Shown here: positions 53 to 4,243 of the stretch, piece after piece
Layout of the letters: each line of letters starts with the position of its first letter
Numbering within the stretch: the first letter of the stretch is position 1
Origin: Qubevirus faecium
Sequence record: FJ539133.1
Length of the DNA stretch: 4,243 bases
Direction: 5' to 3' (one strand)
Notes under the pieces: generated by a model
Seen by the model: the letters and a program-made list of their open reading frames with translations, nothing else
What the model was told of the DNA's origin: nothing
The model's database searches: none
Position numbers and translations under genes: made by a program

Positions 53-1378
53 ATGCCAACCCTTCCGAGAGGTCTTCGCTTCGGATCGAACGGCGAGGTC
101 GTTAACGACTTCAACGCGCTCTGGTTTCCAGAGCGCGAAACCTTCGACTCCGGGCTTGGATCCTACGAACTCACTGGTTACGTAAGTAATCAGCCGGGAT
201 ACGAGACACGCATGCGTAATCCTAGCATGCATTGTATTCGTACACCGCACAGAAGTACGGTGCCAGTTAACCATCTTGGTTACAGGCCTGTTACGACTGT
301 TGAGTACACTCCTAATGGGACTTTCATCCGCCTTGACGGGGATGTGAAGTTTTCCGGTGGAGCGGTCAGTGGGTCGCTCAAACTTAGCAACTATGTTGTT
401 AACTTGGCGGCCCAGGGTGGCTTCGATTACCAGTCGGTAATCGGTCCAAGGTTCTCTGCGCAATTCGCTGCGTTCAGTACCAAGTATGGTACGTTACTAG
501 GCGAAGGGAGAGAAACACTTAGTTATCTTCTCCTGCTGTTTCGCAGGGTGCGTGAAGGGATCCGCGCTGTAAAGCACGGTGATCTCAAGCGCCTCAGGAA
601 TCTGATACGTACGTTCGAGCCGCGCTCCGTTCCCGGAAAGCGGCAAAGAGCATCGTTCTCAGAAGCCTATCGCGACAGAACTGCCAATGGCAGTTGGAAA
701 GACAGTAGTGCGAGTGACCTGTGGTTAGAATTCCGTTACGGGTTGATGCCGTTATTTTACGACATCCAGTCCGTAATGGAAGACTTCATGCGTGTCCATA
801 AGAAGATCGCGAAACTTCAGCGATTCTCTGCAGGACACGGCAAGCTAGTTGAGGTAAAGGGTAAGTTCTTCCCTGATCCTCACTTCGCTCTTGAGGTCAC
901 CGCAGTGTTGCAGCGGCGTCATCGTTGGGGGGTGATATACCAGGATACTGGTTCGTTCGCCACCTTCAATAATGGTCGGCTAATCCCGGTGAGGGATTGG
1001 CAGACAGCGGCTTTAGCACTCCTTAATCCCGCCGAGACTGCTTGGGAGTTAACTCCTTACAGTTTCGTCGCGGATTGGTTTGTTAATGTAGGTGATATGC
1101 TCGAGCAGATCGGCCAGCTCTATCGCCATGTCGACGTTGTCGACGGGTTTGATAGAAAGGACGTGAAGCTCAAGAGCGTGTCGGTACGTGTCATAAGAGA
1201 CGACGCGACGCACACGTCTTTCAGCTTAGCTGGAGCGGTGTTGTTGCATAGTTTCTATTCGCGCGTGCATACCGTTGCGTTTCCGCAAATCTCACCACAA
1301 CTCGATACTGAGATACGTAGTGTTAAACACGTAATCGACAGTATTGCCCTTTTAACTCAGCGTTTTAAAAGACGCTAA
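53..1378 (+). CDS. A2: Maturation (A2) protein; in Qbeta-like phages also the lysis effector
   Basis: 441-aa ORF, ATG start, TAA stop, first gene after the 5' UTR. The translation (MPTLPRGLRFG..., LWLEFRYGLMPLFYDI, AWELTPYSFVADWFVNVGDMLEQIGQLY, VVDGFDRKDVKLKS, LLTQRFKRR) closely matches the Qbeta A2 protein as I recall it. Confidence 0.93.
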   Translation: MPTLPRGLRFGSNGEVVNDFNALWFPERETFDSGLGSYELTGYVSNQPGYETRMRNPSMHCIRTPHRSTVPVNHLGYRPVTTVEYTPNGTFIRLDGDVKFSGGAVSGSLKLSNYVVNLAAQGGFDYQSVIGPRFSAQFAAFSTKYGTLLGEGRETLSYLLLLFRRVREGIRAVKHGDLKRLRNLIRTFEPRSVPGKRQRASFSEAYRDRTANGSWKDSSASDLWLEFRYGLMPLFYDIQSVMEDFMRVHKKIAKLQRFSAGHGKLVEVKGKFFPDPHFALEVTAVLQRRHRWGVIYQDTGSFATFNNGRLIPVRDWQTAALALLNPAETAWELTPYSFVADWFVNVGDMLEQIGQLYRHVDVVDGFDRKDVKLKSVSVRVIRDDATHTSFSLAGAVLLHSFYSRVHTVAFPQISPQLDTEIRSVKHVIDSIALLTQRFKRR

Positions 1379-2404: not shown

Positions 2405-2424
2405 TAGCATGTCTAAGACAGCTA
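2405..2424 (+). promoter_or_regulatory. Replicase translational operator hairpin (coat-protein binding site spanning the replicase start codon)
   Basis: TAGCATGTCTAAGACAGCTA folds as an 8-bp stem (2405-2408 and 2410-2413 paired with 2417-2424), with a bulged A at 2409 (the A of the AUG) and a 3-nt loop UAA (2414-2416). The geometry and sequence match the Qbeta operator AUGCAUGUCUAAGACAGCAU. Confidence 0.7.
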
Positions 2425-4139
2425 GTCACAAGAAGAAAATTACTCAAGCATTGAGTAAGGTCGACATCAACTTTGAAGACGACATCCATATGTCTATTGC
2501 CAATGACCTCTTTGAGGCCTACGGCATTGCACCTCTTGCGTCGGCGGAGCAGTGTATCAGCACTCCGTTCCCTGACACTTCAATGGACGCTGATGCATTT
2601 CGCATCCATTACCTGCGTTCAGAGATCCTTAGCAAGTTCAGTGCGCACCCTCTCGGTATTGATACCGAAGCGGCCGCCTGGGAAAAGTTCCTGGCTGCCG
2701 AGGAGGGTTGTAGACAAACCAACGAACGTCTCACTAAGGTTAAGTACCATGATAATTCCATTTTGTCATGGGGCGAGCGTGTTATTCACACTGCTCGTCG
2801 AAAAATACTTAAACTGATCGGTGAGACTGTCCCGCTGGGGGATGTGGCGTTGCGCGCCCGATTTTCGGGAGGCGCTACGACCTCGGTTAACCGTTTACAC
2901 GGTCACCCGTCGTGGAAGCATGCCTGTCCGCAGGATGTAACCAAACGTGCACTGAAATACCTAATGGCCTATAAAAAGGCCTGTGGTGACGTCGTTGATT
3001 TACGCGTCAATGAGGTGCGCACTTCAAATAAAGCAGTCACTGTTCCAAAGAACAGCAAAACTGATCGTTGCATTGCCATCGAGCCCGGCTGGAATATGTT
3101 TTTCCAGTTAGGCGTAGGTGCTGTGCTCCGCGATAGGTTGCGCCTTTGGCAGATTGATCTTAATGACCAATCTGTTAATCAGCGCCTCGCACGCGATGCG
3201 TCGCAGTTGGACCATTTGGCCACTGTCGACTTATCAGCAGCAAGTGATTCGATAAGCTTACGGCTTGTTGAATTGCTAATGCCGCCTGCTTGGTTTGATC
3301 TCCTGACCGATCTCCGATCGGACCAGGGTGTCCTGCCAGATGGGCGTGTCGTTACTTACGAGAAAATATCCTCCATGGGTAATGGCTACACTTTCGAGCT
3401 GGAGTCGCTAATCTTTGCGGCCCTAGCCAGGAGTGTGTGCGAGTTGTTGGACCTTGACCAGTCAACCGTCAGCGTGTACGGTGATGATATAATCATCGAC
3501 TCACGTGCCGCTGATGTCCTGATGGCGGTTTTTGAGTATGTTGGGTTCACGCCTAACAGAAAGAAGACTTTCATTAAGGGCCCCTTTAGAGAGTCGTGCG
3601 GTAAGCACTGGCACTCCGGGGTTGACGTAACGCCCTTTTACATACGCCGCCCAATCCGTTGCCTAGCCGACATGATACTTGTTTTAAACAGTATATATCG
3701 GTGGGGCACGATTGACGGGGTGTGGGATCCTAGAGTACTGCCTGTGTACCAGAAGTACGTGAAGCTGCTACCAAGAGATTGGCGGCGCAACACTATACCT
3801 GATGGTTACGGTGACGGTGCTCTCGTCGGATTGGCCACGACTAACCCATTCGTTATCGTCCGGAATTATTCCAGATGGTATCCTGTGTTGGTTGAGGTCC
3901 AGAGGGATGCTAAGCGTCACGAGTTTGGCAGTTACTTATATGCCTTGCTGCGTGACCGCGAAGCACGTTACAATCCCTTCCTGCGTACTGCAGATGGGAG
4001 TGGGTTTGATGAAACACCGCTAGCTACTAGCCTTCGTCGCAAGACAGGTCGGTACAAAGTGGCGTGGATTCAGGACAGTGCCTTCATCCGGCCCCCTTAT
4101 TTTATTAAGGGAATTCCCGAGGTGAAGCTTGCGAGCTAG
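2409..4139 (+). CDS. rep: RNA-dependent RNA polymerase (replicase beta subunit)
   Basis: 576-aa ORF, ATG start, TAG stop. Contains the D-x4-D motif A (DLSAASD, 3228..3248) and the catalytic YGDD (3477..3488). The N-terminus MSKTASHKKKITQALSKVDINFEDD and much of the sequence are Qbeta/SP replicase-like; the length equals what I recall for the SP-group replicase. Confidence 0.95.
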   Translation: MSKTASHKKKITQALSKVDINFEDDIHMSIANDLFEAYGIAPLASAEQCISTPFPDTSMDADAFRIHYLRSEILSKFSAHPLGIDTEAAAWEKFLAAEEGCRQTNERLTKVKYHDNSILSWGERVIHTARRKILKLIGETVPLGDVALRARFSGGATTSVNRLHGHPSWKHACPQDVTKRALKYLMAYKKACGDVVDLRVNEVRTSNKAVTVPKNSKTDRCIAIEPGWNMFFQLGVGAVLRDRLRLWQIDLNDQSVNQRLARDASQLDHLATVDLSAASDSISLRLVELLMPPAWFDLLTDLRSDQGVLPDGRVVTYEKISSMGNGYTFELESLIFAALARSVCELLDLDQSTVSVYGDDIIIDSRAADVLMAVFEYVGFTPNRKKTFIKGPFRESCGKHWHSGVDVTPFYIRRPIRCLADMILVLNSIYRWGTIDGVWDPRVLPVYQKYVKLLPRDWRRNTIPDGYGDGALVGLATTNPFVIVRNYSRWYPVLVEVQRDAKRHEFGSYLYALLRDREARYNPFLRTADGSGFDETPLATSLRRKTGRYKVAWIQDSAFIRPPYFIKGIPEVKLAS

Positions 4140-4178
4140 ACACTAGCTCGTAATGGGAAGGGGCCTCTTTGAGGTCCC

Positions 4179-4198
4179 GGAAGGAGAAAGAAAGAAAA
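4179..4198 (+). other. 20-nt all-purine A-rich tract in the 3' UTR (candidate Hfq/host-factor binding site)
   Basis: GGAAGGAGAAAGAAAGAAAA contains no pyrimidine across 20 nt. Hfq, the host factor of Qbeta replicase, binds A-rich/ARN-type tracts near the 3' end of Qbeta RNA. Confidence 0.4.
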
Positions 4199-4213
4199 CT
4201 CCCTCCTGCGAGG

Positions 4214-4243
4214 GTGGGCTCTGCTTTGCCCACTCTCCTCCCA
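4214..4243 (+). promoter_or_regulatory. 3'-terminal hairpin plus single-stranded CUCUCCUCCCA tail (replicase initiation site)
   Basis: GTGGGC (4214-4219) is complementary to GCCCAC (4228-4233), with an 8-nt loop TCTGCTTT. The genome ends in ...CTCCTCCCA, the canonical levivirus 3' end; the final A is non-templated in Qbeta. Confidence 0.65.

Follow-up and report, generated by a model that had tools for sequence, protein, structure and literature searches.

The hairpin at the replicase stop codon of a group IV Qubevirus faecium genome as the counterpart of the Qβ R1 element

The last codons of the replicase gene of the RNA phage genome analysed here run into a short inverted repeat that encloses the stop codon, and the question raised by this locus is whether the repeat represents a structural element of the 3' untranslated region (UTR) domain or is merely incidental, both options having been offered in an initial annotation. 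To judge from its sequence, the stretch under analysis (the window, 4243 nt) is a complete RNA-phage genome that has already been deposited, namely that of a group IV Qβ-like RNA coliphage of the species Qubevirus faecium (the SP/NL95/FI group). The genomic RNA corresponds to the plus strand as given, which opens with GGGG and closes with CCCA. Full-length megablast matches among the phage records include NL95 (90.8%), the FI strain HB-P22 (83.8%) and SP (about 80%), all of which belong to Qubevirus faecium. The window contains the maturation-protein (A2) ORF (53-1378), the coat ORF (1397-1795), a further ORF (2027-2389) that continues the coat frame and matches the read-through A1 protein annotated in relatives, and, on the plus strand, the ORF of the replicase or RNA-directed RNA polymerase beta subunit (2409-4139), the last 11 nt of which constitute the 5' arm of the hairpin. 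The replicase is 100% identical to NCBI ACT66756.1, which comes from a 4243-nt record, and matches Pfam PF03431.

The initial annotation had described a perfect 8-bp hairpin at this site, and examination of the sequence both directly and by script bears this out: the arms CGAGCUAG/CGAGCTAG (4132-4139) and CUAGCUCG/CTAGCTCG (4143-4150) are perfect reverse complements separated by the loop ACA (4140-4142), and the TAG stop of ORF 2409-4139 lies at 4137-4139, inside the stem. The helix extends beyond the reported 8 bp, comprising 11 bp (4129-4139 with 4143-4153) in the minimum-free-energy fold of 4100-4243, in which the added pairs are G4131-U4151, U4130-A4152 and U4129-A4153. All parts of the complete hairpin are read on the plus strand. 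Its 5' arm, UUGCGAGCUAG (4129-4139), codes for the last replicase codons cuU-gcG-agC-UAG (Leu-Ala-Ser-stop), with the UAG occupying the top three base pairs; its triloop ACA (4140-4142) is GCA in SP and has A as the third base in all group IV sequences; and its 3' arm, CUAGCUCGUAA (4143-4153), consists of 11 nt near the start of the 104-nt 3' UTR, after the 3-nt loop. When folded alone, the 25-mer 4129-4153 forms 10 bp at -14.4 kcal/mol (z = -5.27), a stability equalled by none of 200 shuffles. The repeat also goes beyond chance expectation, the genome having 4 distinct loci with perfect hairpins of at least 8 bp and loops of 3-8 nt as against a mean of 0.4 per dinucleotide-shuffled genome. 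Ten of the 11 pairs have a probability of 0.9-1.0 in folds of the last 400 or 800 nt, the segments on which these values were computed in place of the full 4243-nt genome. The minus-strand version of the stem has only 8 bp and -11.5 kcal/mol; because the conserved G-U pairs (G4131-U4151 and others) turn into C-A mismatches on that strand, the plus-strand form is favoured as the selected one, and the minus-strand hairpin was rejected as such. Two other candidate explanations were also discarded, namely an intrinsic terminator and a significance of the CTAG tetramers at the level of DNA, be it as palindrome or as restriction site, the latter on the ground that the genome is RNA.

The surroundings of the hairpin correspond to a known arrangement. 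In the scheme published for the family, a long-distance interaction, ld IX, joins the 3' terminus to an upstream stretch and encloses the hairpins U2, V and U1, with the "terminal replicase hairpin R1" sitting just outside it (PMC3561173). The window reproduces this layout on its plus strand, with ld IX enclosing three hairpins and R1 lying outside. The 5' strand of ld IX, UGGGA (4154-4158), which is invariant in 7 genomes, pairs with the UCCCA of the genome terminus (4239-4243) at probabilities of 0.5-0.9. The enclosed elements are a U2-like hairpin, GGGGCCUC-UUU-GAGGUCCC (4160-4178), with 3 compensatory pairs among the group IV genomes, a V-like hairpin with the 12-nt A-rich loop AAAGAAAGAAAA (4179-4206) and 2 compensatory pairs, and the 3'-terminal hairpin U1 with the conserved loop sequence CUGCUUU (4210-4237). 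The hairpin under study ends at 4153 and the ld IX strand begins at 4154, and the lack of any spacer between them would allow coaxial stacking of the two helices. Nowhere in the window was there a match to an Rfam covariance model at E <= 1; the absence of an Rfam model for R1 is a gap in the library and not a sign of novelty.

The 3' ends of 16 complete or near-complete Qubevirus records were compared for covariation, which had been proposed as the check on this hairpin, with loss of the pairing in related genomes as the outcome that would count against it. The pairing is conserved: the hairpin is present in every group IV sequence, its differences are compensated, and compensatory changes were found in both group IV and the Qβ group. 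At 4133-4149 the window has G-C, whereas NL95, BR1, BR8 and SP have A-U and HB-P22 has U-A, the last variant being also found in three further independent Logan contigs whose replicase falls in the same 90%-identity cluster. The pair 4130-4152 is present as U-A, as C-G (SP) or as U-G (BR1 and BR8), while 4134-4148 is A-U, but C-G in FI. The variable sites of the 5' arm are third codon positions (cuU, gcG), and their partners in the UTR change accordingly. In the ungapped group IV alignment, which has 6 distinct rows, 98.5% of the cells are paired and 3 pairs are changed on both sides; the covariation score was reached by none of 500 shuffles, and when the partner was slid by 1-3 columns the paired fraction was 17-38% as against the observed 98.5%. 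RNAalifold recovers the same helix. In the Qβ group (III), with 5 distinct rows, strains such as BZ1 and TW18 contribute 2 compensatory pairs, and 97.8% of the cells are paired, the number of independent lineages on which the covariation rests being small in either group. For groups III and IV together the slid controls gave 17-51% of cells paired versus about 98% observed; compensatory pairs were counted separately in the two groups, between which the MAFFT register differs by one column. The above observations, taken together with the position of the hairpin, make it very probable that 4129-4153 is R1, a selected structural element. Of the two options originally offered, the first is therefore sustained by the covariation and by the adjoining ld IX helix.

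The identification with R1 is further supported by direct comparison with Qβ. The original structure model of the Qβ 3' domain is said to go back to a 1995 paper in J Mol Biol, and the internal coat proteins of the Qβ virion were reportedly first described in a 2017 PNAS paper. [quoted passage not shown] 2022; PMC8880383). The coordinates of this stem-loop are printed as 4104-4416, evidently for 4104-4116, and the last six nucleotides of Qβ pair with 4124-4129, thereby lengthening R1 (PMC8880383). In the Qβ record, 4104-4116 corresponds to UCUCUACACGAGG, which is the tip of the hairpin homologous to that of the window, and 4124-4129 is UGGGAG, complementary to the terminal CUCCCA. MAFFT aligns the pattern GAAG-(C/G)UU...ACAC...UGGGA(A/G)GG across groups III and IV, and the Qβ and window hairpins share the columns between GAAG and UGGGA. 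Hence, the hairpin of the window has the attributes of R1: the last replicase nucleotides form one of its arms, it lies directly 5' of the ld IX strand, its pairing is compensated, and it is homologous to stem-loop 57 of Qβ.

The version of the hairpin in the Qβ group is uuGCGUCUC-UACAC-GAGGCGUAA, with 9-11 bp. Both Qβ and the window have R1 just 5' of UGGGA(G), the partner strand of the 3' terminus, a stem of 11 bp that overlaps the replicase stop and shows covariation, an ACA(C) loop core, and the stem base UUGCG...CGUAA, which is also found in strain BR12; in the other strains of the Qβ group this base carries covarying substitutions. The two versions differ in their loop, which has 5 nt (UACAC) in Qβ and 3 nt (ACA) in the window, in the stop codon, Qβ having UAA at the base of its 3' arm and the window UAG at the top of its 5' arm, and in the presence of a CC spacer before ld IX in Qβ, which the window lacks. 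The 5-nt loop of Qβ R1 indicates that loop geometry is not strictly conserved. In M11, MX1 and their relatives the hairpin takes the form CUAUCCUA-AAA-UAGGGUAG or variants thereof. SP, which belongs to the same species as the window, has A-U in place of the G-C at 4133-4149 and C-G in place of the U-A at 4130-4152; its 3' domain is described as comprising just three hairpins inside ld IX, with R1 outside (PMC3561173). The 3' UTR of MS2 resembles that of the window in several respects: ld IX closes its 3' domain, the maturation protein binds its U1 hairpin, and a UGCUU loop is conserved (PMC8880383, PMC3561173). In contrast, MS2-type domains contain several more hairpins, and R1 does not directly adjoin ld IX in some groups (PMC3561173).

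More distant relatives, gathered by protein search and contig look-ups, have replicases 46-61% identical to that of the window. Across the 11 lineages there is invariably a hairpin of 23-29 nt placed against a UGGGA(G) or UGGAG strand, the sequence of the hairpin differing between lineages while its place remains the same. Wherever the 3' end of the genome is at hand, the strand pairs with it, as in ld IX. The gap between hairpin and strand is 0-1 nt in most lineages, and 3 nt in BR1, the fold of which omitted basal pairs. Ten of the 11 loop types encountered across the lineages end in A. A scan of IMG/VR with the conserved 3'-terminal pattern returned phage SP alone. The metagenome pattern CCCGAGGTGAAG-N(24-28)-TGGGAA gave 120 loci, none of which had BLAST similarity to the window, and was set aside as too loose, its matches being attributable to chance.

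The resemblance of R1 to the coat-protein binding sites of these phages bears on its likely role. The coat protein of the window is 77% identical to that of Qβ, with residues 24-60 being nearly identical, and its replicase gene has a translational operator of the Qβ type, a coat-protein binding hairpin, AUAGCAUGUCUAAGACAGCUAGU, at about 2404-2426, the core of which, GCAUGUCUAAGACAGC, is identical to the Qβ operator core. R1 resembles this operator in having a 3-nt loop that ends in A and an upper stem of at least 4 bp. It differs from the operator, with its bulged A, UAA loop and internal start codon, in having no bulge and an ACA loop, and it is not placed to repress translation initiation. 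R1 was rejected as the replicase translational operator itself, given that it lies at the stop rather than the start codon and lacks the bulge, and that the true operator is found at about 2404-2426. Early binding studies reportedly showed that the bulged A of the Qβ operator is dispensable. For the Qβ coat protein the loop must have 3 nt and the upper stem 4 bp, with an A at +8 (PMC11724954). By these criteria the loop of R1, which is ACA (GCA in SP) with a 3' A on an uninterrupted 11-bp stem, agrees with a coat-protein binding hairpin. The regularity with which the loop ends in A is in keeping with recognition by the coat protein, and it yields a definite prediction as to the structure of group IV virions.

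In Qβ, deletion or coding-neutral scrambling of R1 yielded particles that were formed without the maturation protein and were non-infectious (PMC8880383; also PMC10610835). These mutants were built on a cDNA plasmid, and replication or, in the deletion, the replicase C-terminus was possibly affected too; the link between R1 and incorporation of the maturation protein in Qβ may be indirect. The internal coat dimer and the mutant phenotypes are established in Qβ only, and Chang et al. regard the contact of R1 with an internal coat-protein dimer as unique to Qβ (PMC8880383). R1 of group IV is a plus-strand RNA structure, with its 5' arm supplied by the last four replicase codons and its 3' arm by the start of the 3' UTR; it can stack on ld IX, the closing helix of the 3' domain, and, along with the U2-like, V-like and U1 hairpins, would form a multi-way junction at the 3' end. 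By analogy with Qβ, this rigid, operator-like arm would most likely offer its 3-nt loop with the 3' adenine to a coat-protein dimer, the R1-bound dimer of Qβ representing an extra dimer inside the capsid, and might help keep the 3' junction in a shape suited to incorporation of the maturation protein, and hence to infectivity. The evidence leans, if only slightly, towards such a role of R1 in group IV, with regard to both the coat dimer and the maturation protein. Taken as a whole, the locus is probably best explained as the group IV R1 of Qβ-like phages with a role derived from that in Qβ.

Three other readings were weighed against this explanation. RNA phage genomes are rich in hairpins, the window having 32 triloop hairpins of at least 6 bp versus 14 in shuffles; one could thus suppose that in the present hairpin two CTAG tetramers have given rise to an inverted repeat by chance, without any selected function. 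However, the 3 compensatory pairs in group IV and the 2 in group III, the excess of paired cells over the slid controls, the recurrence of hairpins of differing sequence at the same place in 11 lineages, and the abolition of infectivity on mutation of the Qβ homologue (PMC8880383) all contradict this notion. The option of an incidental origin is excluded because the pairing covaries, and a chance palindrome retains a vanishingly small probability. Another reading takes its cue from the location of the stop codon within the stem, on which the initial annotation had laid stress: the hairpin might sequester the replicase stop and modulate termination, or might allow the terminating ribosome to melt R1 and ld IX, exposing the 3' end to the replicase after translation. 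A ribosome terminating at this site would, given its footprint, necessarily unwind R1 and could reach ld IX, which begins a mere 15 nt past the stop in group IV and 3 nt past it in Qβ. The stop does lie in the stem in the window, but its position varies among relatives. In group IV it is at the top of the 5' arm, in the SRR28250698 lineage in the loop (as UAA), in MX1 and a JGI relative at the top of the 3' arm, and in Qβ and M11 at the base of the 3' arm. Five more distant lineages have it 7-24 nt upstream of the hairpin, and their R1 is entirely within the UTR. The FI record EF068134 has an A for the U of the UAG, with loss of the stop, an A-A mismatch in the stem and an ORF longer by ten codons, the UAG being kept in an FI-like Logan contig. 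A fixed spacing between stop and structure, as expected of a stop-codon-linked recoding or termination structure, is not seen across the relatives, and the hairpin with its adjoining ld IX is conserved whatever the position of the stop. In the three distant lineages with a computed distance, 38-51 nt separate the stop from ld IX, a helix that a terminating ribosome could not open from so far away; a role linked to termination is therefore excluded as the conserved function. The translation-coupled switch is weakened by this wandering of the stop and appears quite improbable; the overlap of stop and hairpin is better regarded as a by-product of where the ORF ends in the group IV lineage, the conserved features being the hairpin and its adjacency to ld IX.

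The remaining alternative concerns replication, with R1 mainly stabilising the ld IX and 3'-domain fold that controls access of the replicase to the 3'-terminal CCA, or with its complement acting near the 5' end of the minus strand, the coat contact being secondary. R1 abuts ld IX, all Qβ R1 mutants were non-infectious (PMC8880383), and the Qβ 3' domain carries replication signals such as the pseudoknot of the U1 loop (PMC3561173), which has a counterpart in the window at 4221-4227 / 3030-3036. Yet the R1-scrambled Qβ mutant still made particles and the defect measured was loss of the maturation protein (PMC8880383), while the conserved G-U pairs speak against a selected minus-strand hairpin. 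As the principal function this appears improbable, and a replication role may coexist with an assembly role. A variant of the preferred assembly reading, which we consider a long shot, is that the 11-bp ACA-triloop R1 of group IV is a high-affinity coat-protein site gated by translation. If so, R1 and, 15 nt downstream, part of ld IX would be kept melted by the ribosome that terminates at the UAG of the 5' arm, and loading of the internal coat dimer and the maturation protein would be confined to RNAs whose translation has ended. The outcome would be a translation-to-packaging switch specific to those lineages whose replicase ORF grew into R1.

R1 as such is already known, having been named and functionally studied in Qβ and forming part of the published 3'-domain schemes, including that of SP. 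The present identification is of little importance beyond annotation, where R1 of the 3' domain may now serve as the label of the hairpin in this Qubevirus faecium genome. Only certain comparative points are mildly new, namely the presence of R1 with ld IX in uncultured lineages, the apparent growth of the ORF into R1 and the near-universal adenine at the 3' end of the loop. With regard to the second of these, R1 lies wholly in the 3' UTR in the more distant lineages, which implies that in the E. coli phages the replicase ORF was extended into a structural element already in place; it thus appears that this ORF grew into R1. The reach of the combined R1 and ld IX arrangement into uncultured Qβ-like lineages with replicase identities of 46-61% should be of modest use to RNA-phage specialists. 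In one of these lineages, represented by a permuted contig, the true 3' end (...CCCCUCC) is complementary to the strand adjoining the hairpin.

The closest match to the window in the phage collection searched, which does not include the record of the window itself, is NL95 (90.8%). The replicase encoded by the window (2409-4139) is ACT66756.1, an accession that lies between those of the FJ539132 and FJ539134 proteins; judged by this order of accessions alone, the genome is probably FJ539133. The terminal replicase hairpin R1 (window 4129-4153), which carries the UAG stop of this gene (4137-4139) in its 5' arm, departs from this arrangement in a single group IV record. In phage FI (EF068134, ~4085-4128) the sequence reads CAAG, whereas every other group IV genome has CUAG, including the FI-like Logan contig from ERR1302821. 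In the FI record the replicase stop is consequently lost, the reading frame is extended by 10 codons to a UGA within the hairpin that follows, and an A-A mismatch is present in the stem of R1. The CAAG of EF068134 might be either a sequencing error or a genuine variant.

Beyond group IV, the Logan and JGI assemblies contain a set of uncultured Qβ-like genomes (L139, L142, L143-L145, L146, L147 and L148-L151), whose replicases share 46-58% identity with that of the window. In most of these a read-through-domain ORF comes after the coat gene, and its counterpart in L146 and L147 has no match in Pfam. In all of them other than L142, R1 lies wholly within the 3' UTR, 7-24 nt past the stop. One member of this set, L148 (JGI Ga0616298_00517), is a circularly permuted contig in which the 3' end ...GCCUGUUCCCCUCC abuts the 5' end GGGGUAGGGCCCC... 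(3530-3560). This junction probably arose when the two ends of the genome were joined during assembly, and the contig is useful in that it exposes the 3' terminus of its lineage.

Downstream of R1, the loop of the 3'-terminal hairpin U1 (CUGCUUU, window 4221-4227) is complementary to AAAGCAG at window 3030-3036 in the replicase gene, the two stretches being separated by ~1190 nt. In Qβ, the U1 loop forms a long-range pseudoknot that is reported to be essential for replication (PMC3561173), and the complementarity in the window corresponds to it.

Across the window as a whole, triloop hairpins with stems of at least 6 bp number 32, as against 14 +/- 3.6 in dinucleotide shuffles, and those among them with A as the last loop base number 7, as against 3.1 +/- 1.8. 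This excess is consistent with the presence of many operator-like packaging signals, that is, hairpins resembling the coat-protein-binding hairpin of Qβ, comparable to the many such signals mapped in that phage. The longest of the triloop hairpins found, with a UAC loop and a 16-bp stem that includes G-U pairs, lies in the replicase gene (window 3243-3277). The longest perfect short-loop hairpin of the genome, the 10-bp CGCGCUCUGG-UUU-CCAGAGCGCG, is situated towards the 5' end of the maturation-protein gene (window 115-137).
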